NCBI GenBank assembly: GCA_023246355.1
Contig: JAHFIQ010000002.1
Location: forward strand, 24,333 to 88,332
Direction of reading: 5' to 3'
Origin: Candidatus Uhrbacteria bacterium
GTDB taxonomy: Bacteria > Patescibacteriota > Patescibacteriia > UBA9934 > GWF2-40-263
DNA: 64,000 nt
Numbering within the stretch: position 1 is the first letter of the stretch; each line of letters begins with the position of its first letter. The notes under the pieces were generated by a model that was not told the DNA's origin, did no database searches, and saw only the letters and a list, made by a program, of their open reading frames with translations. Shown in pieces: positions 6,498 through 53,626 of this stretch. A program made the position numbers and the translations under genes.

Positions 6498-6673
6498 AAC
6501 GAGGTGATTTTTATTTTTCGAAAAGCGTGAGAAAAGAAAGTTTACCCTTGTTGTTGGGTTATCTTAACTCAAGTGTGAACACTGAAGACCTGACCCCATA
6601 TTCGCGCAAACGAAAATACGACCCGTGAGGTCGTGGAAGAGGTTTCGAGGGGACCGGTCCCCGGAGGGTGGCG

Positions 6674-7219
6674 TCAAGCAGGAATGAGTTGGAGTCGTTG
6701 AGCACGGCGGCGGACGAGGTCTGTTTCGGTTCCGAACCTTTCCGCAACATCCACGAGGATCCCGTGTTGTTCATCGAAGGCAAGGCGAAACTGCGGTCCA
6801 GGGACGAGCAGAACGCCTGCGAAGGTGCAGGCCTCGCGATCCACCGCGTCGTCCATGTGCCAGGGAACCATCATTCCATTCCCTTTGGACACGAGCGGGA
6901 AGTGGAGGAAGTAGAATCCGACTCCGCGGGCCACGAGGAATCGATGTCGGCTAGTGAACTCGTCGGACGACACCGTGAGATCAAAGTCGCCTGCTGACCG
7001 GACGATGAGCGCCGTCGTGGGGGTGGGCGCCGTGTACACGTGTCCGCCTAGGAGGCGAACGAATTCCTCGAGGTTACCATCAGGTGGTAGTTTGGCGTCT
7101 CTAGCTACGCGCTCCGCGAGCTCCTCGATGTTTTCGGGTGCGAAGTTGCACGGTTTGGGGACCGAGAAGAGGGCTGGTGTGGACATGGATACTCCGATCG
7201 CGACTGGATCGTAACACAC
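6674..7219 (-). CDS. Hypothetical protein, high-G+C island gene
   Basis: 181-aa ORF in markedly G+C-rich segment; palindrome GGGGACCGGTCCCC just downstream. Confidence 0.4.
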   Translation of the reverse strand: MCYDPVAIGVSMSTPALFSVPKPCNFAPENIEELAERVARDAKLPPDGNLEEFVRLLGGHVYTAPTPTTALIVRSAGDFDLTVSSDEFTSRHRFLVARGVGFYFLHFPLVSKGNGMMVPWHMDDAVDREACTFAGVLLVPGPQFRLAFDEQHGILVDVAERFGTETDLVRRRAQRLQLIPA

Positions 7220-7406
7220 GAGTCCTGAAAAGCAAACCAGAATGAAGGGAAGGCAGTCTCTGTAAAAGCTAAGCCGTAGCTGGTGTCAAAAATAAATCTC
7301 TTCGTTAAGACGGACAGAGTCACGAATCGTTTGTGGTCTCGCAACTTGTCTCTTTTTTGTTGACTCCATTTCTCTGATCCGATACGGTTTCCATGAAGGA
7401 GCCTCC

Positions 7407-7721
7407 ATGATCACCCTCCTGCTCTTGGCCCTGCTTGCTTGCAGCCCACCTCCACCTCCTCCCAAGGTCGCATCTCCACTTCCTGAGGAAGTGGTAAACA
7501 CCATCACCATCAAGGTGCCGGCCGATTGCCCGCATCTCATCGTGGATGTGACCTCGGACGAGACAACAGATGTGACCGCCGCCTGCTTTGTGAACAACGA
7601 GCGTACCTACTTTGCGCATGAAGAAGCTCCGCTTTTCTGCACCGCGGACGATCCTTCTGTTGAGGAGTTCGTGAAGCTCGAGTACATCCAAGACCTTCCG
7701 TATCTCTCCTCCGTCCATTAG
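7407..7721 (+). CDS. Small lipoprotein, Pro-rich after lipobox (LLACSPPPPPPK)
   Basis: Signal peptide MITLLLLALLAC with lipobox; G+C-rich. Confidence 0.45.
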   Translation: MITLLLLALLACSPPPPPPKVASPLPEEVVNTITIKVPADCPHLIVDVTSDETTDVTAACFVNNERTYFAHEEAPLFCTADDPSVEEFVKLEYIQDLPYLSSVH

Positions 7722-7778
7722 CTGGGCGGAGTTTTCTGTGAAAAAGAAAACCGCCCGAGCAGGACGGTCGTAGGAAAC

Positions 7779-8294
7779 CTATCGTGGGAACACAGGGAGT
7801 GTGATCGTCACATCGAGAGGTTCGTGTTCTTGAAGTGAGCCGTGTTCGTAGAAGTAGCGTTGTTGGTGCAGAGGCATCTGAGGGTTGAGCTCGTAATTGC
7901 GTAGCACCGGGAACAGCCACCGTTCGTCTGCTGGCCACATCTCACTTCTGGGAAGGCGCATGAGGCTGTAGGCCTGTGGATCCGTCATGCCCTCGTCAGG
8001 ATAGGCTCGAGGGATTCCGTGAAACGACCCCATGAACCAGTACATCCGTCGGTTTCTGTCGGGCCCATCGCGATGGATATTTTCCACAACCGCGAGCAGG
8101 ATGGTCTCTTCAAGGATCGGCGACAGACCGCTTTCCTCTTCTGCCTCACGACATGCGGCTCCAAACAGCGACGTGTCGCTTCTCTCGAGCCTTCCTCCCA
8201 CAGGCACACGTCTCTCCACGCCGTCTTGAGAGAGCTTCTTCCACAGGACGTATCGATCTTTGCGTCTTGGGAGAAACAAGCAGGTGATGATCAT
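7779..8294 (-). CDS. NUDIX hydrolase
   Basis: Nudix box GGRLERSDTSLFGAACREAEEESGL (Gx5Ex7REuxEExGu). Confidence 0.65.
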   Translation of the reverse strand: MIITCLFLPRRKDRYVLWKKLSQDGVERRVPVGGRLERSDTSLFGAACREAEEESGLSPILEETILLAVVENIHRDGPDRNRRMYWFMGSFHGIPRAYPDEGMTDPQAYSLMRLPRSEMWPADERWLFPVLRNYELNPQMPLHQQRYFYEHGSLQEHEPLDVTITLPVFPR

Positions 8295-8429
8295 GGTCCT
8301 CCCATACGGAAAAAGAGAGAGATACAGAGGGCGAGCGCAAAGACGGCGGAGCAGGGTTTATCCTGTGTGAAGATGAGAATTCTGTCAATCATTGACCAAT
8401 CTTTTAGAATAACGTACTCTTCTGCCGTT

Positions 8430-10253
8430 ATGATTCGAGACGATTTACGCAATATCGCCATCATCGCCCACGTCGACCACGGCAAAACCACGCTGGTCGA
8501 TGCGCTTTTGAAACAGTCACACACATTTCGAGAGGGCCAATCCATGGGAACCACTATCATGGACTCAAACGAACTCGAACGAGAGCGCGGTATTACGATT
8601 TTTGCAAAGAACGCGGCCATCGAGTGGAAGGGAAAAAAGATCAACATCGTGGACACGCCTGGTCACGCGGATTTTGGCGGTGAGGTAGAACGCATCATGA
8701 ACTTGGTCAATGGCTGTTTGCTCTTGGTGGATGCCAAGGAAGGTCCCATGCCGCAGACAAAGTTTGTACTCAAGAAAGCTCTTGAGGCTGGACATAAGGT
8801 GATTTTGGTCGTGAACAAGATCGACAAAAAAGATGCGCGACCAGCCTGGGTCCTGAACAAGACGTTTGATTTATTTATCGATCTGGGAGCCACCGATGAA
8901 CAAGCGCATTTTCCCGTGCTCTACGCCTCTGCCATTAATGGGATTGCCGGGACTGAGCCTGAGATCGAAAAGATGAAAGACATCTCTCCCATTTTGGATG
9001 CGGTCGTTGAGCATTTGAGTGGACCCTCCGGTGACGTGAATGCCCCCATGCAAATGTCGATCGTGAATATTTTTTACGATAACTACAAAGGCCGTATTGC
9101 CGTTGGCCGTGTGATCAACGGCGTGGTGAAACAGGGCGCACAGGTGAAACATATCAATCGTGATGGAAAAGAATCGATCGCTAAAATTACCGCGCTTCAA
9201 ATCTACGATGGTCTCGGACGAAAAGAAGTTGAATCCGCTTCAGCCGGCGAGATTGTCGCGCTCTCGGGAATGGAGCATGTGCAGATCGGTGAGTGTTTGG
9301 TGGATCCCGTGAACGGCGTCGCGCTCCCCGTGATGTCGGTGGAAGAGCCCACGGTCAAAATGACCTTTGGCGCCAACACGTCTCCCTTTGCCGGAAACGA
9401 AGGAGAGTTTTCGACCGCTCGACATCTGAAGGAGCGTCTTGAGCGAGAGCTCTTGAATGACGTGGCTCTGCGTGTGGAAAAGGGCGATGGTGATTCACAG
9501 TTTGTCGTCTCAGGTCGAGGCGAACTTCACTTGGCGATTTTGATTGAGAAGATGCGACGTGAAGGATATGAATTACAGGTGTCTCGTCCGCAAGTGATTT
9601 TCAAAGAAAAAGATGGTGTGACCATGGAACCGTTTGAGGCGGTGTCCATTGAGTGTCCGGAAGCCTTCTCGGGCATTGTCATTGAAAAAATGGGAAAGCG
9701 CCGTGGAGAGATGAAAGACATGCTCGTTGAAAACGGGACATCGTTTCTCGAGTTTGAGATTCCAACGCGTGGACTGATCGGCTATCGCAATGAGTTTTTG
9801 ACGGACACCAAGGGACAGGGGATCATCAATACGCTTCTGCTGGGCTACCGCGAAAAGGCGGGTGAGATCACGGCAGGGGGGCATGGCGCGATGATTTCCA
9901 TGGAGCAAGGTACGACGATGGGCTATTCGCTCACCAACTTGCAAGAGCGTGGGTCATTGTTTCTGGGTCCGGGCGTGGAAGTCTATGCGGGCATGGTGAT
10001 TGGCGAGAACTCGCGCAATGAAGACATGGAAGTCAATCCTTGCAAAGAAAAGAAATTGTCCAATATGCGTTCCAAGGGAGATGGTGCATCGGTCATCTTG
10101 GAAACGCCACGCGACATGACCCTTGAGATGAATCTCGAATTTCTCTCCGACGATGAACTGTTGGAGGTCACCCCAAAATCGATGCGTATCAGAAAAATGA
10201 TTCTCGACGCCGGAGCGCGCAAACGTGCTGGGTCGCGAAGTGTGAGTGAGTAA
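8430..10253 (+). CDS. typA: Translational GTPase TypA/BipA
   Basis: NIAIIAHVDHGKTTLVD, DTPGHADF, NKIDK G-domain plus EF-G-like domains; start re-set to ATG 8430 (the ORF track N-extension from 8019 overlaps the upstream minus-strand gene). Confidence 0.85.
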   Translation: MIRDDLRNIAIIAHVDHGKTTLVDALLKQSHTFREGQSMGTTIMDSNELERERGITIFAKNAAIEWKGKKINIVDTPGHADFGGEVERIMNLVNGCLLLVDAKEGPMPQTKFVLKKALEAGHKVILVVNKIDKKDARPAWVLNKTFDLFIDLGATDEQAHFPVLYASAINGIAGTEPEIEKMKDISPILDAVVEHLSGPSGDVNAPMQMSIVNIFYDNYKGRIAVGRVINGVVKQGAQVKHINRDGKESIAKITALQIYDGLGRKEVESASAGEIVALSGMEHVQIGECLVDPVNGVALPVMSVEEPTVKMTFGANTSPFAGNEGEFSTARHLKERLERELLNDVALRVEKGDGDSQFVVSGRGELHLAILIEKMRREGYELQVSRPQVIFKEKDGVTMEPFEAVSIECPEAFSGIVIEKMGKRRGEMKDMLVENGTSFLEFEIPTRGLIGYRNEFLTDTKGQGIINTLLLGYREKAGEITAGGHGAMISMEQGTTMGYSLTNLQERGSLFLGPGVEVYAGMVIGENSRNEDMEVNPCKEKKLSNMRSKGDGASVILETPRDMTLEMNLEFLSDDELLEVTPKSMRIRKMILDAGARKRAGSRSVSE

Positions 10254-10260
10254 ATAAAAT

Positions 10261-10319
10261 CCCGTCAGGATCCTCCTGGCGGGTTTTTGTATGTTAAAAC
10301 CTGCCAGTGAGTGGCAGGT
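10261..10319. terminator. Back-to-back terminator hairpins: typA (+) and the high-GC operon (-)
   Basis: cccgtcaggatcctcctggcgggttttt, then acctgccagtgagtggcaggt followed by T-tract on the minus strand. Confidence 0.55.
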
Positions 10320-10328
10320 CGAGATGAG

Positions 10329-10913
10329 CTAGTCGGACGTGAGTTCCGACATCGCGCGGTGCTTGATCATGGCGATACTCGCGTTGGCTCCATCCGGGAA
10401 GGAAGCGATGAGGGTGCTCACGATCGCGAAGTGCTCCGGAACAGAGGTCGTGATGCTTCTGAGATCACCTGAGAGAGTACCCTCAGGCTGGTAGTGCGAC
10501 CTCCCATGGGTGTCGAGCCGGAGGCCGAAGACCTCCAGGACGAGCCGTCCGTTCGCGAAGAGATCGAGGGCTGCAGGGAAGTGAACCATTCCATCGTTGC
10601 GGGACAGCGTTTCCAGACGCTGGTCCGCGATCTTGAGGGCGAAGGTGTTTGCGTCTTCGAATCCTGGACGAAGTTGAGGTGCACCCACCAGCATGGCCAA
10701 GAGGGGAAGCCCGGCGGCATTGGCGCGATCTAGCAGTGCGGGGTCGGCGAAGGCCGTGCAGGCCATGCTTTGGCCATCGACGAACGCCCAACCCCCATTA
10801 CCCCCCAGAGTAGCTTGGATGTTTTGCTCATCGATTGGAATGTCGGTTGCCTGTGAGAGCCCAGTGCACAGCTCCAGGAACGTGCGGCGATGAGAGGCTT
10901 TTGCACGAGACAT
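10329..10913 (-). CDS. Secreted protein with twin-arginine-like signal (SHRRTFLEL...SQA), hypothetical
   Basis: ATG at 10913 preceded by AAGGAG RBS; RR-x-FL motif in the N-terminus. The ORF track N-extension to 11135 overlaps the upstream gene. Confidence 0.45.
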   Translation of the reverse strand: MSRAKASHRRTFLELCTGLSQATDIPIDEQNIQATLGGNGGWAFVDGQSMACTAFADPALLDRANAAGLPLLAMLVGAPQLRPGFEDANTFALKIADQRLETLSRNDGMVHFPAALDLFANGRLVLEVFGLRLDTHGRSHYQPEGTLSGDLRSITTSVPEHFAIVSTLIASFPDGANASIAMIKHRAMSELTSD

Positions 10914-10935
10914 GTGGCTCCTTGGTAGGTTGCGT

Positions 10936-11316
10936 TCAGGCCTCGCGGCCGTGTTTGATCGCGTCGATTTCGTCCATATCTTCCATTCGGTGGTCGACCC
11001 ACTGTCGAAACCCGAGACTCCCCGGCGGAAGACGTAGGGCTGATTCGGCATCCCGTGGCGGATCCGGCCAACGGTCACCGCTGTACCACTGAGAAGCCTT
11101 GATGTGCTTGAAGGCTCGACGTTGGAGACTCTCAATGTGGGTCATGAGAGCCACGAATTTGGGATTGTCCTGGCGGATGTCGATGACGGGGACTCCATCG
11201 ATGGTGTCAGGCCCTAAGCGTCGGCTTGAGAGAATGCCGATCAGTTGGAGAAGACTCACGCTGTCAACGGAGTCTTGCTCAAGCTGTGCGATCAGCGCGG
11301 CGTCACGATCGTCCAT
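10936..11316 (-). CDS. Hypothetical acidic protein
   Basis: 126-aa ORF tightly packed between neighbours; G+C-rich. Confidence 0.4.
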   Translation of the reverse strand: MDDRDAALIAQLEQDSVDSVSLLQLIGILSSRRLGPDTIDGVPVIDIRQDNPKFVALMTHIESLQRRAFKHIKASQWYSGDRWPDPPRDAESALRLPPGSLGFRQWVDHRMEDMDEIDAIKHGREA

Positions 11317-11322
11317 GGAACC

Positions 11323-12036
11323 TCACGGGTTGATCCATCCAACTCGCCAGGCGAGCCAGATGAGAGAAACGAGACCCCACGAGAAGGCGTTGACCATCTC
11401 GGTTGCGAGCATCCAGACGCGATTGTGATCCCACGACGCTTCACCCTTGGTAAGCACGAGGTGCCACATACGGATCCAGATGTTGAGGTTGCCCACTAGC
11501 ACGGAGAAGCCATGTACTCCCGCGCCGCCGACCAGGAAGATCTTCCAGCCTTGCATGAGCTGAGGAATCCCGCGAGTGGCCATTCCTACTTGGGACTTGG
11601 TGATCGGATCCTCGAAGTTCGAACCCGAGGCACGTCGCAGGAAGTAGACAAGCAGCGCGCTCACAACCGTGACGATGATCGTGATCTTGTCGTTGCGGTC
11701 CCAGATGTACATCCCGCGAGAGAGGATCACCAGGATGTGTAGACTTTGCAGAACGATCCACATGCCATACACGAGGCAGGCTTGGGAAGCTCGTCGTGAT
11801 GGTGCGGCTTTGTAGGCGGAGACAGCGAGTGAGAGTTGGAGCCCACAGAAGACGAGCAGAACGAGGAAGAACGAGAGGCTCACGCCCTCCACGTTGGTCC
11901 AGTTGCGGACCATCATAGGGACAATGAGACCAAAGCCTCCAAGGATTTGGATGCCGAAGAGCAAGTCTGCTGTGTCGCGGGGAATGAGCGTGGCGAGGAT
12001 GGATCCTCCACGACGCTCGAGAGACTCGATTGCCAT
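11323..12036 (-). CDS. Polytopic membrane protein with C-terminal similarity to heme-copper oxidase subunit III (CoxIII/NorE-like)
   Basis: 6-7 TM. C-terminal GVHGFSVLVG...W..W..LIWLAW resembles the GFHGLHVIIG...AAWYWHFVDVVWLF region of COX3. Similarity judged by eye only. Confidence 0.35.
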   Translation of the reverse strand: MAIESLERRGGSILATLIPRDTADLLFGIQILGGFGLIVPMMVRNWTNVEGVSLSFFLVLLVFCGLQLSLAVSAYKAAPSRRASQACLVYGMWIVLQSLHILVILSRGMYIWDRNDKITIIVTVVSALLVYFLRRASGSNFEDPITKSQVGMATRGIPQLMQGWKIFLVGGAGVHGFSVLVGNLNIWIRMWHLVLTKGEASWDHNRVWMLATEMVNAFSWGLVSLIWLAWRVGWINP

Positions 12037-12219
12037 TGAAGGAACCTCCTCATCGTAGACAACCGTTCTGGTTATCGACGAGCAATCAAGATATCAAAAA
12101 CCCCAGGTTTTGTCCAGGGTCTGAGACAGGATCAGCCCGCAAAACAAAAACGCATCCGGCTGGGAAGACGTCTACGTCTTTGTCCCGCGGATGCGAGCGT
12201 GGCCGGCGAGGTCTTGCGA

Positions 12220-12693
12220 CTACGCCGGGTCGTTGGTGAGGATGAGGTCGTGCTTGTTGTCCTGGGGCGGCTCGTAGGTGGCGGTGACGCCCAGGTCGAC
12301 GGTCACGACCGGGTTGTGCGACGATCCCGAGCACTGCCACGTCGAGTGGGTGTGCTCGTTGACACCGAGGACCATGGCGGTCAGCAGGTTCGGATCGAGC
12401 TTGGCGGCTGCGGCGCGGCGGTGATCCACGGCATTGCGCAGCACCGAGGGGCTCGCCTGTCCCTCGCAGGACTCACCGTTCAGGCTCGAACCCGCTCCGC
12501 TCTTGTAGCAGTAGCAGGCGCGGTCGAATTCCGCGTAGGCGACGGAGAGCTCGTCCATCGACGCGACGGTCTCCTGGCTGACGATCGGGTAGGTGTCCGT
12601 CTCCTTCTCGAGATACACGATCCCCGAGACCGGGATCTTGGCGAAGGCGATGGAGACGAGGGCGATGAGGCTGGCGATGGCCAAACGAGACAT
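12220..12693 (-). CDS. Secreted Cys-containing protein, hypothetical
   Basis: ATG at 12693 with AGGAGG RBS; Sec signal MSRLAIASLIALVSIAFA; 5 Cys. Confidence 0.5.
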   Translation of the reverse strand: MSRLAIASLIALVSIAFAKIPVSGIVYLEKETDTYPIVSQETVASMDELSVAYAEFDRACYCYKSGAGSSLNGESCEGQASPSVLRNAVDHRRAAAAKLDPNLLTAMVLGVNEHTHSTWQCSGSSHNPVVTVDLGVTATYEPPQDNKHDLILTNDPA

Positions 12694-12714
12694 GTGTCCT
12701 CCTGATTGTGGACA

Positions 12715-12745
12715 GAGAAATATATCACAAAAAGAGGGTTTTGTC
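12715..12745 (-). promoter_or_regulatory. Promoter of the high-GC 4-gene operon, embedded in the MFS terminator hairpin
   Basis: Minus strand reads TTGACA, 17 nt, TATATT inside AAAGAGGGTTgacaaAACCCTCTTTTT. Confidence 0.4.
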
Positions 12746-12783
12746 AACCCTCTTTGGTGCGTTTTGCGCGGTTTTTGAGGTTT

Positions 12784-15527: not shown

Positions 15528-15624
15528 CATTCCACGGGTTTTTTTATAGGGTGCAGTCACGAGAAAGTGGATTTCCCACTCTCGAGCACTCGGGAGGTGC
15601 GTCTCATTTGCCTGGAGGTGTTCC

Positions 15625-16356
15625 TTGTCCAGTCCTCTCCCCTACAGAACTCGTCATGAGTTTGTGATGGCGTTTATGGCAAACGTAGCCATGACGTCCG
15701 CGACGGCCGTGACCGGTCAGCAGCGGGGCAGGCACGGACAGCGTCCGGGCAAGCCCATGGCTGGAAGGTCGGGCGACGACCTGGCCGTGTACGCCTACTT
15801 CAACATGCGTTCCGTGGCCAGCATGATCGCGAGCATCTGCACCAACAAGGTTCGTCGCAGGAAGAAGCGCAAGCTCTCTACCTGGACGGTGAGCCGATTC
15901 GTGTCCCAAGCGATCCACCTCATCCACGCCGGGTTGAATCCCGAGCTCAAGGCACCTCGAACCCACGAAACAGCCGGTGGGTATGGGTGTTCAGCGGCTG
16001 ATGTCGAAAGACGTTGGCGTGAGTTCATGGATGAGCTTCAGAAGAAGATCGATGTGGATGATCCCACAGAGTTGTGCGCCTGGGTGGAATACCAAGTGCG
16101 CTTCGATATCCATCCGTTCGCGGATGGAACCGGTCGTCTCGCCACAGCCCTCTGTGCCTGGATCATGCTTCGCAGCAAGCGGGCGATTCCCAGCTACGCC
16201 TTTTGGCAGCGCTCCTCGATGCACGAGAAACTCCGTGAAGGGTTCCCGGCGTTTCGTGAGTACTACTTGAAGGCCTGCTTCGAGGAAGCACAGGAGGCAA
16301 CCGCTTCCACGCACCCTCCTAGGGCAGCGGCGCGTGCGCAGGTGGCCGCTGCCTGA
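15625..16356 (+). CDS. Fic/Doc family protein with divergent motif HPFADGTGR and a polybasic stretch
   Basis: FDIHPFADGTGRLATAL matches the Fic motif HPFx[DE]GNGR with N to T and without the second Arg; KVRRRKKRKL basic cluster; G+C-rich. Confidence 0.6.
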   Translation: MSSPLPYRTRHEFVMAFMANVAMTSATAVTGQQRGRHGQRPGKPMAGRSGDDLAVYAYFNMRSVASMIASICTNKVRRRKKRKLSTWTVSRFVSQAIHLIHAGLNPELKAPRTHETAGGYGCSAADVERRWREFMDELQKKIDVDDPTELCAWVEYQVRFDIHPFADGTGRLATALCAWIMLRSKRAIPSYAFWQRSSMHEKLREGFPAFREYYLKACFEEAQEATASTHPPRAAARAQVAAA

Positions 16357-16423
16357 CTCTCGGGTTGATGATTCATCGACCCGTTTTCTTTTTGAGAGAA
16401 AACTTGTAGGCTACCCTCCGACT

Positions 16424-17952: not shown

Positions 17953-17982
17953 AAATAAAACCCCCAGGATGAATCTTGGGGG
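17951..17982 (-). terminator. Intrinsic terminator for a minus-strand transcript
   Basis: Minus strand reads cccccaagattcatcctggggg followed by ttttattttt. Confidence 0.55.
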
Positions 17983-17999
17983 CCGAAGGCTAGGGGCCT

Positions 18000-28951: not shown

Positions 28952-29032
28952 AGACAGACATTTTAGGGCTTCTCTCTTATTTAGGCGAGTTTCTAAAAAG
29001 AAAATCCCCTTGCCAGATGGCAGGGGGGTCGG

Positions 29033-29722: not shown

Positions 29723-30062
29723 GCAGTTCTCCGTTAATGGACTGGATGCATGACGACCTCCTTTGGCTTGATTGCCAGGCTCAGAGGATAGTCGATTTTA
29801 CCGAAAAAGTCAATAGGGACCTCTGCAAACATGTGAGTAAAAGAAAAGCGCCGTGGAGGGAGTCCAGGGCGCAGGGAGAGCGACAGTTCTCGCCACGTCT
29901 TTGGACAGGGTAGTTCTCGTCACTCAAGGTCATGCAGTTACCGCGTCGATTAACATCAGAGCACAGATCGCACGACAGAGGAACCTAGCACGGGGAAAAG
30001 GATTTGTCTACTGGTTCGGGAGCTGCTACCATCCAGGTAATAAATTGTTGAGATCACCTTGT

Positions 30063-36442: not shown

Positions 36443-36519
36443 TGGTGCGGCCGGGGGGACTCGAACCCTCGGCCTCATGGTTCGAAGCCATGCGCTCTAT
36501 CCAGCTGAGCTACGGCCGC
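36443..36519 (-). tRNA. tRNA-Arg (anticodon TCG), CCA encoded
   Basis: GCGGCCGTAGCTCAGCTGGATAGAGC ... anticodon loop CTTCGAA ... GGTTCGAGTCC ... CCA. Confidence 0.75.
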
Positions 36520-36584: not shown

Positions 36585-36659
36585 GCGTCGGTAGCTCAGG
36601 GGTAGAGCAGGAGACTCTTAATCTCTTGGCCGTGGGTTCAAATCCCACCCGACGCACCA
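36585..36659 (+). tRNA. tRNA-Lys (anticodon CTT), CCA encoded
   Basis: GCGTCGGTAGCTCAGGGGTAGAGC ... anticodon loop CTCTTAA ... GGGTTCAAATCCCACC ... CCA. Confidence 0.8.
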
Positions 36660-36783: not shown

Positions 36784-37476
36784 TTACGAGCGGGTGGAAG
36801 GTTTGGGGCGACCCAGAATTGGCAGTCGCGCTTTGATGGCCGCACGAGCGTTTCTCATGATGGCGTCGTTTGCCAAACCTGCAAACGGCTGGTTGAACGG
36901 CAATCCGCACAGACGAATCGCATCTCGTTGGGGTGAGAGGCGGATGGCGATGGCAGGCCCACCCAGAACATCGGTAACGACGGAAGCAAGCATGAGCGAG
37001 GTGTCGATCGTGACCATCGGCATGACCCGACGCGTCCGTTTTGCCTTACGCGTGAGTTGTTCGTAGAGCTCCGCGATTTTTTCGTACGGATATCCTTCCA
37101 CCTGTCGACGCACCTCCGCCAGGTCACTGGCTCCGACCATAGCGATCTGAGAGAGAAACCCTGAGAGAGGGCCAGATGGAACACGCGGAGAGAATGCCAC
37201 TTCGTTTCGTGTGACATGTGCGACCACGGTGATTTCGCCACCAGCGAGCATGAGCAATGGTGCCAGACGTTGAAACGCCGTGAGGTAGAGATCAATGTGG
37301 TCGTGAACTGGATGTGTGTTCACGTGGAGGCTGCAGGGAGTATCGGGCGTTTCCGCCTCAGAGTGTAGGACGATTTGGAAGGAGGTGGGGAAGGCTGAGG
37401 ATTTGGGAGGAAGCACGGACGGCTCCAGGAGGGCAAGGGCACGATAGAGGGTTTTGTAAGAAATGTAAAACCCCAC
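36784..37476 (-). CDS. coaX: Type III pantothenate kinase (CoaX-like, ASKHA fold); start codon uncertain
   Basis: VTIDTSLMLASVVTD and LGGPAIAIRLSP resemble CoaX hIDhGTATThD and GGxIxPG motifs. The N-terminal part of the ORF is likely non-coding. Confidence 0.45.
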   Translation of the reverse strand: MGFYISYKTLYRALALLEPSVLPPKSSAFPTSFQIVLHSEAETPDTPCSLHVNTHPVHDHIDLYLTAFQRLAPLLMLAGGEITVVAHVTRNEVAFSPRVPSGPLSGFLSQIAMVGASDLAEVRRQVEGYPYEKIAELYEQLTRKAKRTRRVMPMVTIDTSLMLASVVTDVLGGPAIAIRLSPQRDAIRLCGLPFNQPFAGLANDAIMRNARAAIKARLPILGRPKPSTRS

Positions 37477-37497
37477 GAGTTGTGGGGTTCAGGGCTC

Positions 37498-39516: not shown

Positions 39517-39642
39517 CCAAGACTCCGGTTGAGAAGTGAATCCCGGTACAGAGCATCAAAATGCCTCTGCACACGAGAGAGAAAGATAGAGGATTTTAGC
39601 TAAAAAGTCAAACGATTTAGGAATGGATCGCCATTTTTGTCA

Positions 39643-40365
39643 TTAAATCACCTCGATTGTCTTTGAAGTAGCAGCCAGGGCGTGAATGTCTGGGTAGCTT
39701 CTTTCGCCGTACAAAAATGGATACACACCGAGCTCTTCGATCAGTTCAAAATTACGAATTCCATGCTCTGGGAGTTTGGTTGATTTTGGGATAGAACCTG
39801 TGACGTGGAAAATGGAACGCTCACGTGCGGGATCTTTTTGATTTTGGATGAGACCCACAATGACGTGATCAACGAGTTTGAGCGCCTCCTCACCGCGGGC
39901 AAAATCAAAATTGAATTCGAGTGAGACTCCTCCTGTGAGCTGGCCTATGAGTGAGCGACCAGCAAGAGGCGGTTCAATGAGTGCTACTTCATGAGTAGGA
40001 AAGAGGTTAATGATTCTTCGACTCTCATCTGAGAGATTGGTCGCGATCGGGACAGCGTCAATGTCTGTGGTCGTGTTGTGAATGTCCAAGACGTACCGAG
40101 ACGATCGAACGCGAGCAAGAAGTTGAGCCGCAAGTCGTTCTTCTTGTGAGCCTTCTGGATGTCCAGGAAATGAACGGTTGAGATCGGTTTCAATAAATCG
40201 TTTGTTCAAGACCATGGCTGGTTCGTTGGCAAGCACAAGCGCCAAGCCGGGATAGGCAGCCAGACGATCAGAGTAGTGTTCAAACAAATCACGTCCGAGT
40301 GTTTCGTCGCCATGAAGGCAACCAACCAACGTGATCAGAGGATTGGGAGGTCCAAGATATTTCAT
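39643..40365 (-). CDS. Succinylglutamate desuccinylase/aspartoacylase (AstE/AspA) family zinc hydrolase
   Basis: LVGCLHGDETLG and RSFPG motifs. Start taken as ATG 40365; the ORF-track extension to 40752 overlaps the upstream GNAT gene. Confidence 0.5.
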   Translation of the reverse strand: MKYLGPPNPLITLVGCLHGDETLGRDLFEHYSDRLAAYPGLALVLANEPAMVLNKRFIETDLNRSFPGHPEGSQEERLAAQLLARVRSSRYVLDIHNTTTDIDAVPIATNLSDESRRIINLFPTHEVALIEPPLAGRSLIGQLTGGVSLEFNFDFARGEEALKLVDHVIVGLIQNQKDPARERSIFHVTGSIPKSTKLPEHGIRNFELIEELGVYPFLYGERSYPDIHALAATSKTIEVI

Positions 40366-40390
40366 AAGAAGGAAAAAGGGATGAGCAAAC

Positions 40391-40987
40391 TCATCCCCGA
40401 GGGAAACGACCAACGCACACCACAGCATCGCCGCGTTCAAAGTCGCAGATGAGATCCCACCAGCGCTGGAGTTTTGGGTCGTGATGCATAGGCTTTGCTC
40501 CGTAGAGCGGTCCGCCATAGAATCCTGCGACCACCGGCGCATCCATGTGAAGCCGCGAAGAGAGCGTCTGAGCCGCGGCGAAGTAGCCTTCGTGCTTGAT
40601 CGTTGGATGCGGGTAGAGCGTGTCGACCCACTTGTGCGCTGCGACCCACATGCGCAGAGATTGGGTTCGCATGCCAAACCATCGTGAGCGCCGTTGTTCT
40701 TGCGCCGCAGCAACAGCTTGAAATGCGATGCCTTTTCCTTGGTGAGATTCACGCAAGATGATCCCGCCTAGGTAGAGGAGGTTTTCGAATCGGTTGAAGA
40801 TCGCAAACCCGACAAGCGTGTCGTCATCCAGGATTGAGAAGACGGTTTGGCCTTCATGTAGGTGAACGTCAACGTCCTGTCGAAGTCCATCGGTTACAGG
40901 CTTCACGAAACCAGAGGAGGCGATCAGCGTTGCAGCATCAACAGGGGGAATCGTTTGAACGAAGCGGATGGGCATGGGGGTCTCCAC
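40391..40987 (-). CDS. GNAT family N-acetyltransferase
   Basis: RESHQGKGIAFQAV acetyl-CoA binding motif (Q/RxxGxG/A). Confidence 0.45.
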   Translation of the reverse strand: METPMPIRFVQTIPPVDAATLIASSGFVKPVTDGLRQDVDVHLHEGQTVFSILDDDTLVGFAIFNRFENLLYLGGIILRESHQGKGIAFQAVAAAQEQRRSRWFGMRTQSLRMWVAAHKWVDTLYPHPTIKHEGYFAAAQTLSSRLHMDAPVVAGFYGGPLYGAKPMHHDPKLQRWWDLICDFERGDAVVCVGRFPRG

Positions 40988-41044
40988 AAAAGAGCGTAGC
41001 GATTCGTCTGGATGCTGTCAAAAAGAAAAGCGAGCGTGGGCTCG

Positions 41045-41515
41045 CTAGAGAGTTGGTGGCAAGGAGATCGTTGAGACGTCCAAGAGGGCCGGCGTCATCA
41101 GGTTCACGAAGAAGACGTAATCCTGAAACGGCGCGGGTTCATAACGCGCCACAGCGTAGGGATCATCTGGGAGGTGAGGAGCACGTCTGTAGATCCGCAT
41201 TTCACGGATGGCGACCGGTCCACCGCGGGGCATCCAGTCCATGTCCACTCGAATGCCGTCCTGATCTGGAGGCAGGGCGAGTTGGACCTCGGCGCAGCGC
41301 AGGAGAGGATCGCGTCCTGTCACGAGCTCTACCGCCGCGTCTACACCTTCACGATTGACCTTGCGAAGGAAGAACAAACGGTCGATGGGGCTTGCGTCTT
41401 CGAGCACCACACAGATTTCGATCTGACGGATGTCGTGCCGTGGCAGATTGCTTTGCTCAGGATTCGGATGGTCAGCGTCGCTGTACGATGGTGAACAAGC
41501 GAACAAGAAGATCAT
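41045..41515 (-). CDS. Small lipoprotein, hypothetical, high-G+C
   Basis: MIFLFACS lipobox. Confidence 0.4.
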   Translation of the reverse strand: MIFLFACSPSYSDADHPNPEQSNLPRHDIRQIEICVVLEDASPIDRLFFLRKVNREGVDAAVELVTGRDPLLRCAEVQLALPPDQDGIRVDMDWMPRGGPVAIREMRIYRRAPHLPDDPYAVARYEPAPFQDYVFFVNLMTPALLDVSTISLPPTL

Positions 41516-42261
41516 GCGGCACCTGTCTGGTTGGCTGTGAGTTCGTCAAAGAGTTGAGTGAGCGGCCGAAGAAGAATGGATCGCAGGATGGATCGCGCCT
41601 CAGGTCCAGGGGCTCGGTAGGTGCCAGTCTCTTGATCGAACTCGATCATGTGACGTTCGATCGCTGCACGACGGTCCAGAACGACCCGCGGGGCAAACGT
41701 CGCGCACAGGGTAATGATTTCTCGAAACGCGAGACCGTGGAAGAAACGCCATACACCATCATCCACAAACCAGAGGAATGCGGCTGCGCTGTCGCGGTCG
41801 ACGATCCGGCCCTTGATGAGCGCGGCGATCACCTCGTTTTCAAATCCTGCGCGCATCATGATGGTCGGCCAGTTAGCAACGGCGGCGCCCTGTGAGAGCA
41901 GCCAGGCAAGCAGTGGGAGACGCTCCTCCTTTGGGAACAGGTTTACCAGTTTTGGCGCTGCAAGAAGTCGTTGGCGAACGACGGCCTGGAAGCGACCAGT
42001 CGTACATTGACGCCTGAGGTACGTGGCGTGAGCCATCTTGATGGCCGCAAAGTCCTCGGGAAAACGGAATACCCATTCGAGTGTTGGTGGCAGTTGCAGC
42101 GTTTGGGATCGCACGATCGTATTGTGCGTGAGATCCTGGAGAAGCGCGTTGTTCAAATGGGCTTCGTTCAGCCGTGCTGTCCTTGCACGAGCACTGAGCG
42201 ATGCCCAGACGGGCCGCACATCAAACATGGTTCGGCCATGGCCCATAAGTACCTCCGACAC
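41512..42261 (-). CDS. Hypothetical protein, high-G+C
   Basis: 249-aa ORF overlapping the downstream gene by 4 nt. Confidence 0.4.
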   Translation of the reverse strand: MSEVLMGHGRTMFDVRPVWASLSARARTARLNEAHLNNALLQDLTHNTIVRSQTLQLPPTLEWVFRFPEDFAAIKMAHATYLRRQCTTGRFQAVVRQRLLAAPKLVNLFPKEERLPLLAWLLSQGAAVANWPTIMMRAGFENEVIAALIKGRIVDRDSAAAFLWFVDDGVWRFFHGLAFREIITLCATFAPRVVLDRRAAIERHMIEFDQETGTYRAPGPEARSILRSILLRPLTQLFDELTANQTGAA

Positions 42262-43631: not shown

Positions 43632-43732
43632 CATCATGAAAAAGGCGGGGCTACCAGGCCCCGCTTTTTTGTGATTCAAAACGAAAACCCGCCGAAGGTG
43701 GGCGGGCGAGGAGGATGAGCGAGTTGCCGTGG

Positions 43733-44245
43733 TTACTTCCAGTTGAAGAACTGGCGGACGGCCTCGGTATGTGTGGAGAAGCACAGTTCGGTCGGTTCCC
43801 AGATGAGGACGCGTTCACTGGTTTCCGTGTTGGGACGGAACGGTGGAAGGTCTCGGACGTGGACCGGCGTGGCGATCGAGAACAGCAGAACGCGCAAGTT
43901 GTTGCTGGAGCTCGCGTAGGGGAACGGCTTGAATGGGATGAGCACGGTGCTTGAAAATTCAGCAACGCCCTCTTCCCAAAGTTCGCGTCCAGCACCGACG
44001 TACCATGGTTCGATTTCGAGGAACCCTCCAGGCAGGGCGAGCTCTCCCACGCACGGCGGGATGGCTCGGCGGATGACGACCAGACCCTTGCGTCTGTCTT
44101 CGCCTAGCACCGGTTGCAGTACCACGACCACTGGCACCGGGTTGTCCCAGAACTGGTTGCCGCAGGATGGGCACACGCGCGGGTAGGCATTGCCTTCAAA
44201 GTATCGTCCACAGCAGCTTGAGCACTGATCGCGTCTGTTACTCAC
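43733..44245 (-). CDS. NUDIX hydrolase with N-terminal zinc ribbon (NudC-like)
   Basis: CSSCCGRY...CPSCGN zinc ribbon plus Nudix box GGFLEIEPWYVGAGRELWEEGV; G+C-rich. Confidence 0.55.
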   Translation of the reverse strand: MSNRRDQCSSCCGRYFEGNAYPRVCPSCGNQFWDNPVPVVVVLQPVLGEDRRKGLVVIRRAIPPCVGELALPGGFLEIEPWYVGAGRELWEEGVAEFSSTVLIPFKPFPYASSSNNLRVLLFSIATPVHVRDLPPFRPNTETSERVLIWEPTELCFSTHTEAVRQFFNWK

Positions 44246-44330
44246 AACTCACTCCAGGGTGGGGACACTTAATCAGAAAGATCGCTTTTTGGCAAGAGAA
44301 AACCCACCGCGTCATCGGTGGGAAGAGAAC

Positions 44331-45032
44331 CTAGTCTTGACCAGGTCGGTACGTGTGGCCGCGGCGGGCACAGGCCTTGCCGTTGCACTGACGCGCGTGG
44401 TTTTTGTCATGCTCGGCTTCCAGCTCTGCCGCACGACTCTGTGTCCACAGCTTGGCAGCGTCCTCGGTTTTGTGAAGACGCAGAAGCGAGCAGGTGAGGC
44501 GACTGATCTCATGTTCACGTCCGTCGTCCGGCTTCCAGAGATGGAAGGTCATGGGCACAGCCGCATCGGGATCGGGAAACAGGACGCCGAATTGGTGCCA
44601 AGAAACACAGACGAAGTCTTCGACGAACGTCGCGATCTGCATGCGGCGCTCGTCAGGATCGTGTTTGAACGACGCTTCGCCAACCTGTGTTTGGACGAAG
44701 GACAGGTGATCGTCCAGCACACGGAATTCCTCGCCAGCTTTCACAAGCCTCACCCGGAAGGTACATGCCTCCATGTCCAGGCCTGGCGCTGCCGCAGCAA
44801 CGGCGACCTTGGGCGGTGCATAGGGCTGTCCGAAGTGGCCGCGGGTGTAGCCTGCCATGGATCCCATCGTGGAGAGTTCGATCACTCCCAGCCAGGCCAA
44901 GGCCGTCTCTCGCGCTTTGCGAGGATTGCCATAGAGACGGTCGTATTCGACCCTTGCTGTGATGGTTGCCCAGCGAAGTTGGGCAGCGATGAATTCCTCG
45001 CGCGGCGGTTCAGCTTGCTTGGAGTCAGCCAT
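44331..45032 (-). CDS. Hypothetical protein with C-terminal Cys/His cluster, high-G+C
   Basis: Start taken at MADSKQAEPP; ends ...HARQCNGKACARRGH. Confidence 0.4.
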   Translation of the reverse strand: MADSKQAEPPREEFIAAQLRWATITARVEYDRLYGNPRKARETALAWLGVIELSTMGSMAGYTRGHFGQPYAPPKVAVAAAAPGLDMEACTFRVRLVKAGEEFRVLDDHLSFVQTQVGEASFKHDPDERRMQIATFVEDFVCVSWHQFGVLFPDPDAAVPMTFHLWKPDDGREHEISRLTCSLLRLHKTEDAAKLWTQSRAAELEAEHDKNHARQCNGKACARRGHTYRPGQD

Positions 45033-45143
45033 GGAATATCCTCGGTGCACTTCAAGCATGATCCTTGGATGAAAACTTCAACAGAGACTTTGACGTCGAA
45101 AACGTCGTCAAAACAAAAAACTGGCCTGAGCCAGTTTTTATCT

Positions 45144-48098: not shown

Positions 48099-48110
48099 TT
48101 CGAGCGTCTT

Positions 48111-50141: not shown

Positions 50142-50143
50142 GT

Positions 50144-51396: not shown

Positions 51397-51399
51397 CGT

Positions 51400-52596
51400 A
51401 TGGCTCTTCATGCCGACGTCAAAAAATATTACATCTTTCGTGCGCTGTTGAAGCGCTTCATTCTGCCCATCTTGGTTTTATACGGACTTGATCGCGGACT
51501 CACGCTGAGTGAACTGTCACTGGTTGCCGCGGTCGGGTCCGTTCTTTCGTTTGTCCTGGAGATTCCCAGCGGCGCGATCGCGGATCGGTTTGGTCACCGG
51601 AACACGCTCTTCGTGTCTATGCTCGGTCAAGCTCTCTCGATGCTCCTGTATCTTGGAGGATCATTCTGGTGGATCCTGCTTGGAACGGCTACCTATTTTG
51701 GATTTGGGACGCTGATGACTGGCACGGCTGAGGCGTTTTTTTATGAACGTGTGAAGCAGCTCGGCCTCGTGGATCAGCACGCAAAGTTATACGGTGCAGG
51801 AAAAGGTTTTGCCACGGGCGTGAGTATTTTTTCCATGCTCTTGGCAGGAGTGTCTTATGAGTTTATTTGGTACCTGCCTTTTTTGATTGGCGCTTTGCAG
51901 TTCGTCATTGCGGCATGCGTGATCGCTTCCATAGGTAAAACACGTGACGAAATCTCGGTTGAAAAAAAGGAAGCCGTACAGGTTTCCATAGTGACACACT
52001 TCAAATCAGCTTTTTCTGAAGTCTGGAAACGACCAGAGTTGTTTTGGATGATGGTCGTCAGTGCGCTCATTATCGGTCCGTTGTTCGCGGTGGGTGATTT
52101 TCAACAGGCGGTGATGAATGATGTGGGAATCTCCGCGTCGCTGATCGGTGTGGTGTACGCGATCAAACGTGGCCTTGCTGTTGTTGTGCAAGGCTCGACG
52201 CACAGACTGATGCAGGTAGTCCAACCCCCGACTCTTTTTTTGGTGTGTGCACTGATCATGGTCTTCCATGAGATTGGAATTGGACTCATTCACAGTCCGT
52301 GGCTCTTACAAATTCCACTCTTGGTTGGCTCCCTGGCTTGGGTCGGGCTTGAGATTGCCGTCAACGATTACATCAATCGTTCCACAGAAACGACTTCTCG
52401 CGCAACACTGCTTTCCATGAACAATTTTCTTCGAAGTCTCATTTCCGTTTTTACCATTGCCCTGTTTGGACTCGTCACCACTCCGGCTCCGGCTGCCCGT
52501 GGCTTCCTGGTGATCGGGATCGTGTTTGCCTGCCTGTTGATCGTTCCACTCGTGATGCTCTTTCGTCAGAAAAAAATCTTTGCCACGAGCCATTGA
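51400..52596 (+). CDS. MFS-type transporter
   Basis: 398 aa, about 12 TM. Confidence 0.5.
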   Translation: MALHADVKKYYIFRALLKRFILPILVLYGLDRGLTLSELSLVAAVGSVLSFVLEIPSGAIADRFGHRNTLFVSMLGQALSMLLYLGGSFWWILLGTATYFGFGTLMTGTAEAFFYERVKQLGLVDQHAKLYGAGKGFATGVSIFSMLLAGVSYEFIWYLPFLIGALQFVIAACVIASIGKTRDEISVEKKEAVQVSIVTHFKSAFSEVWKRPELFWMMVVSALIIGPLFAVGDFQQAVMNDVGISASLIGVVYAIKRGLAVVVQGSTHRLMQVVQPPTLFLVCALIMVFHEIGIGLIHSPWLLQIPLLVGSLAWVGLEIAVNDYINRSTETTSRATLLSMNNFLRSLISVFTIALFGLVTTPAPAARGFLVIGIVFACLLIVPLVMLFRQKKIFATSH

Positions 52597-52637
52597 CATT
52601 TGGCTCGTTTTTGGTATCCTCACGACCGAGGTGAAGC

Positions 52638-53111
52638 ATGCCTTCTCAAGAAACCACTTCGTCTGAGGACACCTTCCTCGACCGCTGGGGACACTGGGTC
52701 CTGTGGATGGGGCCGTACATCGTCGTGGTGAGCATCGTGGCCTGGACGCCGCGACTCATGCTCCTCCTCGCCGGAGTCGAGCTGCTGCAGTTCACCCTGC
52801 ACGCCCGTCGGTACCACCAGATGCATCCGTTGGTAGCTCCTCAAGTGCTGCGTCCAAGACTAGCATTCGATGAGTTCGCCCTAATCATGATCGTGGCAGG
52901 ACTTCTTGTCGCCCCCTTCTCGAACTGGGTGTATGTCCTCGTGATTTGCCAGGTCACGTTCAGTGGCTCGGTTCACAGTCACATCCACGGACGGAGTCTG
53001 GGACTCCCAGCTCTCATAGGTTTCGGAATCGCTTCCTTTTGGTGGGGAATCTTTCTCACAATGCAAGGCGTGGTTCCTGGCCTGCCGTTCCTGCGCGATT
53101 TCCTGCTCTAG
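52638..53111 (+). CDS. Membrane protein, hypothetical, high-G+C
   Basis: 157 aa, 4 TM. Confidence 0.4.
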   Translation: MPSQETTSSEDTFLDRWGHWVLWMGPYIVVVSIVAWTPRLMLLLAGVELLQFTLHARRYHQMHPLVAPQVLRPRLAFDEFALIMIVAGLLVAPFSNWVYVLVICQVTFSGSVHSHIHGRSLGLPALIGFGIASFWWGIFLTMQGVVPGLPFLRDFLL

Positions 53112-53191
53112 CTCGAGCGGGATTTTATTTTTTCGGCAACAGAAAAACGGCACCGTGTGTGCCGTCGCGTTGAACTGCTCAGTTCGTCTGC

Positions 53192-53530
53192 CTAGTTGGC
53201 GTTGGCCTTCATCTTGGGCACACGGCAGCCTTCGTTGCCGCCCCAGCCGCTGGCGCATTCGATGCCCACCATCTGCGGCGTCGCGCCAGACTCGGAAGCG
53301 ACCGAGACCGTGCAGGACACGTAGCCATCGCCGTCGGAATCCTTCTTCACACACACGACGTTGGCCTGCTTGCCCGGGTACATGGCACCGGCCCATTCCC
53401 GAGCCTGTGCCTCGGCTTCGTCCTTGTGGTTGCATCCCACTCCCAGTCCACCCCCGACGATCGCCGCGAGGATCCCGACGATTGCCACGACGATCATGAT
53501 CTCGACCAGTGACGCTCCTCTGCGTTTCAT
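53192..53530 (-). CDS. Type IV pilin-like protein (prepilin N-terminus)
   Basis: MKRRGASLVEIMIVVAIVGILAAI class-III signal (G|ASLVE with Glu+5); ATG 53530 preceded by AAGGAG; 4 Cys in the C-terminal half; G+C-rich. Confidence 0.55.
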   Translation of the reverse strand: MKRRGASLVEIMIVVAIVGILAAIVGGGLGVGCNHKDEAEAQAREWAGAMYPGKQANVVCVKKDSDGDGYVSCTVSVASESGATPQMVGIECASGWGGNEGCRVPKMKANAN

Positions 53531-53626
53531 GCGTATCTCCTTGCCTTCTGAATGAAGGACGCTCAAAAGCTACCGGAAAAGTCTCTCATTGTCAAGACAC
53601 GCTGGAGGCCTTATCCTGTGAGCACT

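Follow-up and report, generated by a model that had tools for sequence, protein, structure and literature searches.

The window analysed here, 64 kb of a genome of Candidatus Uhrbacteria (Patescibacteria), contains eight G+C-rich segments, or islands, which lie between conserved housekeeping genes at positions 6600-53540. An earlier note on this stretch had interpreted them as repeated acquisitions from a high-G+C donor lineage. The islands are indeed accessory DNA held in variable slots between syntenic backbone genes; however, the homologues found for their genes fall in the backbone's own lineage, mostly in the same slot, which speaks against such a donor. The reading that we favour, with about even confidence, is that the islands belong to a G+C-rich flexible gene pool internal to the clade, exchanged by recombination and of mixed ages. 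In addition, the island at 17990-20060, which had been taken to hold foreign protein genes, appears instead to be mostly structured RNA, and its sequence at 18562-19539 is a well-supported candidate for a new large structured RNA family. The observations behind these statements are composition, synteny, lineage-restricted homologues, saturated divergence, RNA conservation and covariation; the direction and mechanism of exchange we infer.

In 500-nt sliding windows the G+C content ranged from 0.43 to 0.64, with a mean of 0.527 for the window, and all eight segments proposed in the note were enriched when measured:

6600-7750, island 1, G+C 0.560
10300-12750, island 2, G+C 0.593
15600-16360, island 3, G+C 0.601
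17990-20060, island 4, G+C 0.581
29030-29730, island 5, G+C 0.636
37500-42260, island 6, G+C 0.571
43700-45060, island 7, G+C 0.596
52630-53540, island 8, G+C 0.597

Pooled, the segments reach 0.584, against 0.507 in the remainder of 6600-53540; same-length segments placed at random gave 0.526 +/- 0.010, and none of 5000 trials exceeded 0.563 (observed z = 5.9). This pattern of composition is highly non-random. The 31 backbone genes have a G+C content of 0.509 and a G+C content at third codon positions (GC3) of 0.554, with a standard deviation of 0.036 that is about the binomial expectation, whereas the 19 island open reading frames (ORFs) have values of 0.590 and 0.693 (Mann-Whitney p = 1e-7 vs backbone), and their first and second codon positions are also richer. 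GC3 is highest in 29033-29722 (0.90) and 12220-12747 (0.84). The spacers beside island genes are host-like (0.41-0.54 G+C), and typA, gyrA, infB and leuS have the backbone-like composition ascribed to them. Third-base usage in the island genes (A.14, C.42, G.29, T.15) is similar to that of two G+C-richer loci described below, L014 and L025; part of the excess of C at third positions (C3) is strand asymmetry, most island genes (13/17) lying on the minus strand.

This asymmetry is visible in the core genes, where minus-strand genes have C3 of 0.31-0.36 and G3 of 0.20-0.27 and plus-strand genes show the reverse, and the cumulative GC skew climbs across the whole window. The C-ending codons were also considered as a signature of high expression. 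This was rejected, since strand asymmetry, with C3 > G3 in minus-strand core genes too, accounts for part of the C3 excess, and since L32, HU, S1 and TypA are not enriched.

The islands are less tidy than first described. Sharp borders had been claimed, and the segments are real, but 6600-7750 is open on its right, where 7779-8294 also has 0.56. The segment 37500-42260 is G+C-rich overall but composite, with only 0.475 at 39517-40400 and a true start at 36784. G+C-rich codon usage holds for the island ORFs but is inapplicable to 17953-19539, which is non-coding. Many accessory genes are G+C-rich as stated, but others are A+T-rich, namely the PIN/antitoxin genes at 27447-28021 (0.45-0.46), the TrmB gene at 20721-21464 (0.46) and the DUF5654 gene at 5795-6091 (0.44). 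Stretches with a G+C content of at least 0.57 also occur outside the eight, at about 800-1700, 2600-3200 and 62900-63800.

The backbone places the window among the Uhrbacteria. ProRS and PilB are 82-93% identical to proteins of groundwater Candidatus Uhrbacteria metagenome-assembled genomes (MAGs), and gene order around both is the same there. The best relatives are Candidatus Uhrbacteria/Patescibacteria MAGs, which bears out the earlier guess of a reduced-genome episymbiont type; RNase Y, a split ComEC, PilB and TrmB, on which that guess had rested, are all present. The loci used for comparison were L001; L002 and L014, which belong to one genome (G+C about 0.58; core GC3 of L014, 0.76); L003 and L011 (about 0.53-0.55); L012; and the more distant L004, L005 and L022. 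Each comparable island is flanked by conserved syntenic genes, and the content of the slot differs between genomes. The islands consist of short, lineage-restricted genes with secreted, lipoprotein, membrane, pilin, Fic-like and Nudix-like products. Outside island 4, which is described further below, they are as follows:

6674-7219, minus strand: island 1a, 181-aa ORF with a weak Peptidase_M78/IrrE-like match (GC 0.60, GC3 0.66)
7407-7721, plus strand: island 1b, 104-aa putative lipoprotein (LLALLAC-S, Pro-rich; GC3 0.66)
10329-12747, minus strand: island 2, four ORFans at about 10329-10883, 10936-11316 (126 aa), 11323-12036 and 12220-12747
11323-12036, minus strand: island 2, 237-aa membrane protein (GC3 0.72)
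12220-12747, minus strand: island 2, secreted protein of 157-175 aa, here secreted175 (GC3 0.84)
15625-16356, plus strand: island 3, Fic-like protein (GC3 0.71)
29033-29722, minus strand: island 5, 229-aa basic ORFan, here hyp229 (GC 0.64, GC3 0.90)
36784-42261, minus strand: composite island 6, with a 230-aa ORF, a 672-aa lipoprotein (GC3 0.75), an AstE/AspA-like gene (about 39643-40430, not G+C-rich), a GNAT (40391-40987), a second lipoprotein (41045-41515) and a 249-aa ORF
43733-45059, minus strand: island 7, a Nudix-like protein (Nudix170, 170 aa, GC3 0.71) and a 242-aa ORFan, here hyp242 (GC3 0.66)
52638-53566: island 8, a 157-aa membrane ORFan (plus strand, GC3 0.70) and a type IV pilin-like gene at 53192-53566 (minus strand, GC3 0.78)

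Of the accessory functions named in the earlier note, Fic, Nudix, GNAT, AstE-like, pilin and lipoproteins were weakly confirmed, but no P-loop protein was found. The Pfam Fic match of 15625-16356, for instance, lies marginally above the cut-off (24.9 bits vs 24, E = 3.9e-5), and nearly all island proteins lack a Pfam or PHROGs match. Prophage remnants were considered as well; scans of 20 island and neighbouring proteins against PHROGs returned almost no phage families, so that the islands are not recognisable as such.

Ten island genes have homologues in the same slot of a relative: the 230-aa ORF, the 672-aa lipoprotein, the 249-aa ORF, Nudix170, hyp242, the Fic-like gene, secreted175, hyp229, the DUF6847-like gene of island 4, and a Nudix-like gene at 7779-8294 that is counted here although it adjoins island 1 just outside the listed segment. 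These homologues are 22-75% identical, compared with 82-95% for the core, and their nonsynonymous divergence (dN) is 0.17-0.40 vs 0.03-0.13, that is, 3-5 times faster. The ratio of nonsynonymous to synonymous divergence (dN/dS) is below 1 for all except hyp229, for which the estimate is unreliable at this saturation; these are therefore real, fast-evolving genes. Synonymous sites are near saturation even against the closest relatives, the proportion of differing sites (pS) being 0.57-0.72. The four island genes held in common with L001 have pS of 0.50-0.63, and the core about 0.57-0.68; since these genes are saturated like the backbone, they are older than the L001 split and are not recent arrivals.

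The individual islands agree with this picture to different degrees. Both genes of island 7 have orthologues in L001 (75% and 74%), and hyp242 also has them in L002 (62%, GC3 0.82) and partly in L003. The 230-aa ORF of island 6 has orthologues in L001 and L003, the 672-aa protein in L003 (58%) and the 249-aa ORF in L001; the AstE-like/GNAT/lipoprotein segment 39643-41515 is absent from both loci. Positional orthologues of the Fic-like gene occur in L012 (59%) and L014/L015 (70%); in L012 the GC3 of this gene lies above that of the host core, in L014 it does not (0.77 vs about 0.76). The secreted175 family occupies the same slot in L011 (55% identity) and L014 (22-23%), with GC3 of 0.88 in both. 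For hyp229, 14 representative clusters were found among 1.84 billion, the sole named member being from Patescibacteria, and a homologue of 29% identity with GC3 of 0.94 lies in the same hot spot of L012. The lipoprotein of island 1b shares 10 contigs with the backbone, whereas for island 1a (6674-7219) and island 8 there was no homologue in the loci fetched from relatives. Also absent from relatives is 17953-21470 (L011 and L014). All homologues with a readable context or name are from Uhrbacteria/Patescibacteria, about nine island proteins standing outside the large-database searches.

Island genes are G+C-enriched in most relatives' genomes too. For genes common to L001, the GC3 offset is +0.05 to +0.15 in the window and smaller in L001. 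In the same slots, relatives carry other G+C-rich ORFans (GC3 0.73-0.94) as well as A+T-rich toxin-antitoxin pairs (Fic-DUF433, MazE-PIN), and since A+T-rich toxin-antitoxin genes occupy the same slots, the flexible pool is compositionally mixed. The pairs, which include the PIN and antitoxin genes at 27447-28021 of the window and Fic-DUF433 and MazE-PIN in variable slots of L011/L012/L014, have GC3 of 0.39-0.52; they share these slots with the G+C-rich ORFans and deviate in the opposite direction.

According to the reading that we favour, the island genes would circulate inside the clade, and their codon usage would be that of its members richer in G+C (58-64% G+C, GC3 0.75-0.9). Islands would enter or be replaced through homologous recombination in the conserved flanks, and the ComEC, PilB and pilin-like proteins of the genome, which belong to families that could take up DNA, could provide the route. 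Old residents would be partly ameliorated and now stand 0.05-0.15 above the core in GC3, while recently replaced alleles would still have GC3 of 0.75-0.9; the RNA of island 4 would be G+C-rich through dense base-pairing. By a rough calculation of two-state decay, a GC3 excess would shrink to about 0.3-0.45 of its initial value over about 0.5-0.7 synonymous substitutions per lineage. Today's offset of +0.1 would then suggest a start near GC3 0.8-0.85, like the extreme class, and decay from about 0.8-0.9 could have left the offsets of +0.05 to +0.15. Exchange with G+C-richer Uhrbacteria of the same clade (0.58-0.64 G+C, as L014 and L025) is a good explanation of the composition.

Several observations weigh against this account. 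Three families keep GC3 of 0.75-0.94 in one and the same slot at 22-60% identity, while the core GC3 of their hosts varies from 0.43 to 0.85: secreted175 (0.84, 0.88 and 0.88 in the window, L011 and L014), hyp229, and the DUF6847-like family (0.74-0.91 in hosts with core GC3 from 0.43 in L022 to 0.85 in L025). Given such persistent extremes, the favoured model needs independent re-supply in each lineage at the same site, and a maintained gene-specific bias accounts for them more simply. The GC3 of moderately enriched genes follows the host: hyp242 has 0.63, 0.66 and 0.82 in L001, the window and L002, whose own values are 0.53, 0.55 and 0.73, which looks like a constant offset (about 0.09-0.10) and not like a fading import. 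For no island protein was a donor-recipient pair of at least 90% identity found. Furthermore, the relatives' loci cover parts of the window, islands 1 and 8 and most of island 2 being without comparison. Lastly, the candidate for the 'home' composition of the module of DUF6847-like gene and RNA, the locus L025, may be either a mobile element or a relative rich in G+C. On this 7.2-kb contig (GCA_037131775-type, labelled Uhrbacteria) of 64% G+C, the DUF6847-like gene is accompanied by RNA domain A, a gene resembling TrmB and six ORFans, with GC3 of 0.73-0.91 throughout.

Some of these points lend weight to a maintained intrinsic bias, under which the island genes would be vertically inherited and kept G+C-rich by GC-biased gene conversion in the variable slots, or else the neutral equilibrium would itself be G+C-rich and codon selection, relaxed in the island genes, would keep the GC3 of the core lower; import would then be unnecessary to account for the composition. 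We regard this as possible but clearly the less probable account. It fits well with an excess that outlasts saturated synonymous divergence, protein identities of 22-60% and host core GC3 of 0.43-0.85, and with the near-constant offset of hyp242 (+0.09 to +0.10 in three genomes, despite core values 0.2 apart). The host-like flanking spacers (0.41-0.54) likewise put the signal within the coding sequence, each relative examined has its own ORFans with GC3 of 0.78-0.94, and island genes evolve 3-5 times faster than the core. Nevertheless, the A+T-rich genes in the variable slots (PIN, MazE, Fic-DUF433 and TrmB; GC3 0.33-0.52) are unaffected, unlike what conversion across a whole slot would produce, and the Fic-like and Nudix-like orthologues in L014 show no GC3 excess. 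Biased gene conversion in bacteria reportedly amounts to a few to about 10-20 points, and an offset of 0.35-0.4 in GC3 lies far above this.

Import from foreign high-G+C bacteria such as Actinobacteria, by repeated insertion that was partly directed to tRNAs and followed by decay of the integrases, appears improbable. The atypical composition would be expected from it, many island proteins have no detectable homologue, and the only solved structure that resembles the DUF6847-like protein is from Corynebacterium diphtheriae (3kdq), although an identity of 16-18% to an actinobacterial protein is uninformative on recent transfer. It would also suit two islands that adjoin tRNA genes, which lie where the earlier note had placed them:

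5704-5778, plus strand: tRNA-Glu
36443-36519, minus strand: tRNA-Arg, bordering island 6
36585-36659, plus strand: tRNA-Lys, bordering island 6

A tRNA and atypical composition are combined at islands 1 and 6 only, and the other six islands are not beside tRNAs. The adjacency had been read as a sign of acquisition, but neither an integrase nor att-like repeats accompany it. Among about 65 window ORFs compared with Pfam, those shorter than 80 aa being covered only in part, there was no integrase, transposase or recombinase, in agreement with the note's own remark that no integrase or transposase is left. As for attL/attR-like repeats, no 13-mer or longer word of tRNA-Lys recurs within +/-12 kb, and tRNA-Glu and tRNA-Arg gave single chance-level 13-mers only, none of them at an island border. 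The tRNA-Arg/Lys pair is kept in L001-L005, and the 230-aa gene beside it is conserved in L001 and L003, which argues against insertion at this site. Several islands are older than the splits between relatives, and all homologues found are in Uhrbacteria/Patescibacteria contexts.

A chimeric assembly, in which fragments of a G+C-richer organism were joined to an Uhrbacteria backbone, can hardly be upheld, for even though the source is a MAG and contigs end inside islands (four assemblies at 39545-39911, one contig at 18263), 16 contigs carry the DUF6847-like protein and 14 the 672-aa lipoprotein in independent ENA, Logan and NCBI assemblies, the aligned contigs (six at island 4 and four at island 6) agree with the window to 99.9-100% along their full length and several cross island-backbone junctions, island and core proteins are found on the same 7-10 contigs of up to 213,799 bp, and orthologous islands stand at the same places on relatives' contigs. 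Independent assemblies thus have the same junctions for the two islands checked, 4 and 6; overall, window proteins were found on 7-16 contigs of independent NCBI, ENA and Logan assemblies, the longest being that of 213,799 bp.

The breaks at 39545-39911 deserve a remark of their own. Contigs of four independent assemblies stop there, inside or beside the AstE-like gene, while the other listed placements continue (L040 spans the site with 100% identity). Taken with these breaks, the lack of the segment 39643-41515 in L001 and L003 means that it is probably polymorphic in the population.

Island 4 differs from the others in being largely non-coding. TsaE adjoins PilB in L011 and L014, whereas the window holds 3.5 kb extra (17953-21470), which read along the minus strand as TrmB, a 660-nt spacer, the DUF6847-like gene (20058->19540), 978 nt of non-coding sequence (19539->18562), a variable piece of 384 nt and a 59-aa ORF:

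20721-21464, minus strand: TrmB-family regulator (GC 0.46, A+T-rich)
19540-20058, minus strand: DUF6847-like protein (172 aa, GC3 0.75)
18562-19539, minus strand: RNA candidate beginning right after the DUF6847-like stop codon, with element (domain) A at 19539->19208 and element B at 19207->18562
17993-18172, minus strand: 59-aa ORF 3' of the RNA, conserved at the nucleotide level in L028 and L031

There is no coding periodicity in any frame across 17953-19539, about three quarters of the island 17990-20060. Similarity in translated searches (tblastx) occurs in all frames, and in our reading of the alignment the changes in the sole short ORF are not biased towards synonymous ones. The non-coding part is 78-87% identical to L028/L029/L031, nhmmer matches of the RNA have E = 1e-212 to 1e-228, and the similarity stops sharply at 18553-18563. 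In the more distant L022, element B has 73% nucleotide identity, compared with 65% for the neighbouring gene. We considered decayed pseudogenes for 17953-19540 and rejected them, as the sequence is better conserved at the nucleotide level than its coding neighbour and changes in a compensatory manner.

The compensatory changes were scored on structures derived from the same alignments, which comprise 5-8 sequences. For domain B (646 nt; RNAalifold, six sequences) the structure has 192 pairs in 29 helices and is closed by a GGAAGG/CCUUCC helix; 41 of the 192 pairs show double compensatory changes vs 2-8 in controls with slid pairing partners, and 96% of cells are paired vs 40-45%, values reached in 0 of 500 shuffles. 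In domain A (about 330 nt), 11 of 53 pairs are compensatory, vs 1-4 in controls; this domain is present 3' of all DUF6847-like genes with downstream sequence, including that of L025 (64% G+C). Relative to shuffled sequences, the minimum free energy of folding (MFE) has z = -6.3 on the minus strand and -3.9 on the plus strand.

Rfam 15 (4227 models) gave no match in 18562-19539 at the gathering threshold or at E <= 5 and recognised only tRNAs in the window; at E <= 10, there was also none in L022, L025, L028, L029, L031 or L032. A blastn search of the RNA against phage genomes returned nothing, and of three invariant RNA motifs compared with viral contigs, two had no match and one, a 16-mer, had 7 chance matches without nhmmer support. 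In the literature searched, there was nothing relevant on large or structured RNAs of Patescibacteria/candidate phyla radiation (CPR), on DUF6847, or on horizontal transfer and G+C content in Uhrbacteria.

The RNA appears in a different arrangement in L022 (48% G+C), where it is split (L022:6494-8399) into domain A, a 221-aa G+C-rich gene and domain B. The inserted gene is 33% identical to L025_207, and GGAAGGGAGGAA is repeated on both of its sides; in L022 this motif is the Shine-Dalgarno sequence of the inserted gene and the 5' strand of the domain B closing helix.

The protein encoded upstream of the RNA is called DUF6847-like because its match to Pfam DUF6847 (PF20935) is below the curated cut-off (19.8 bits vs 27, E = 8e-4). 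The gene also matches phrog_1491 (E = 1.8e-8), and its homologue P0126 has a precomputed weak DUF6847 hit. Its homologues number 8 in 5.8 billion proteins, all in Uhrbacteria-type contexts, and dN/dS against the closest of them, in L028-L031, is 0.13-0.16. An AlphaFold (AF2) model is confident (pLDDT 86); the best fold match of this model is PDB 3kdq, an uncharacterised Corynebacterium protein (TM score 0.69-0.78, 16-18% identity), and a search of PDB sequences with the profile found nothing significant. The order PilB-TrmB-spacer-DUF6847 recurs in L022, where TrmB is 80% identical beside the same module, and L025, too, has a TrmB-like gene close to the module. A promoter-like site is present upstream of the DUF6847-like gene (20292-20264, minus strand).

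The RNA is probably co-transcribed with the DUF6847-like gene and probably acts with its protein. A broader reading, to which we would give an even chance, is that it represents an undescribed class of large RNA of Patescibacteria, which would be a 3' extension of the DUF6847-like mRNA, form a ribonucleoprotein with that protein and be regulated by TrmB; a second and weaker part of the same reading is that small secreted or basic Uhrbacteria genes hold GC3 of about 0.9 in hosts whose core GC3 is 0.43-0.85.

Two further features of the locus were observed. The 384 nt between the RNA and the 59-aa ORF (18170-18553) are absent from L028, and the contig ERZ27297344 k141_7367653 ends inside them at 18263; they are probably a strain-variable indel. 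The DUF6847-like gene and TrmB are separated by a plus-strand unit of about 300 nt (within 20397-20728) that has a fold z of -4.25. It is framed by a promoter close to the consensus (TTGACA-17-TATAGT with TG), which is the same in L030, and by a hairpin resembling a terminator (20697-20718, with a T-run). One block of the unit has 92% identity to L022 and carries a Shine-Dalgarno sequence, after which comes a mini-ORF of two codons (GGAGGTGCCCATGTTCTAG); L030 has a three-codon version of it. The unit may be a small RNA or a leader.

Several other loci of the window differ from their simplest annotation. ComEC is encoded by two overlapping ORFs in 58949-61346, one with Competence and DUF4131 domains (504 aa) and one with Lactamase_B (299 aa). 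TypA is overstated by the long ORF 8019-10253, in which the GTPase domain begins at residue 142, so that the probable start of typA lies near 8430; the gap before it is occupied by the Nudix-like gene 7779-8294, encoded on the strand opposite to the TypA ORF. Outside 6600-53540, in a G+C-rich region (0.55-0.58), a short glutamine-synthetase-like ORF (2499-3509, 336 aa, with a partial Gln-synt_C match) overlaps the 3' part of an opposite-strand 433-aa ORF (1376-2677), and may be a truncated or decaying glnA.

A mosaic that is clade-internal and partly ancient would no longer suggest that genes had flowed across phyla into the reduced genome of an episymbiont. The mosaic itself is ordinary in kind, being made of flexible-genome islets, and unusual in its sign (G+C-rich) and its persistence. 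Families that stay near GC3 0.9 whatever the host provide a natural setting in which amelioration and biased gene conversion could be cleanly told apart in hard-to-culture bacteria, and if this constancy holds true, it would imply an unrecognised process that maintains composition gene by gene. The most valuable result was incidental, namely a well-supported candidate for an unannotated structured RNA of about 1 kb that is tied to a protein of uncharacterised function and to a TrmB regulator. To our knowledge, few classes of large structured RNA are known in bacteria, and the literature searched contained none described for the CPR.

Four known systems invite comparison. The first is the tRNA-linked integrative genomic or pathogenicity island, which resembles the islands described here in its atypical G+C and in its position, here next to tRNA-Glu and tRNA-Arg/Lys. 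The window differs in having no integrase, no direct repeat of a tRNA 3' end and no mobility genes, and the tRNA-proximal gene is conserved in relatives. The second is amelioration of horizontally acquired genes, reportedly modelled by Lawrence and Ochman. The graded GC3, from 0.9 down to 0.05-0.15 above the core, with genes of older splits nearer the core, is as that model would have it; however, some families remain at 0.84-0.94 in all lineages despite deep divergence, which a one-time gain followed by decay does not predict.

The third is the flexible (replacement) genomic island, known from marine bacteria and from O-antigen or pilin loci, and usually A+T-rich. Common to both are fixed slots between syntenic core genes, variable or extremely diverged content, surface, secreted or pilin-type products, atypical composition and no integrases. 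The slots of the window differ in being tiny (1-6 genes) and G+C-rich and in holding A+T-rich toxin-antitoxin pairs as well. The fourth comparison concerns the RNA of island 4 and the large ornate RNAs GOLLD, ROOL, OLE, HEARO and raiA. Like these, the candidate is long (650-980 nt), with many helices and GNRA/UUCG-type loops, and has a multi-domain organisation, a long-range closing helix, a higher G+C content than its surroundings and a specific protein gene beside it. Unlike them, it has no Rfam match and lies directly 3' of a DUF6847-like gene and near TrmB; Uhrbacteria-type contigs alone yielded it, and there was no trace of it in the viral and phage collections that were searched.

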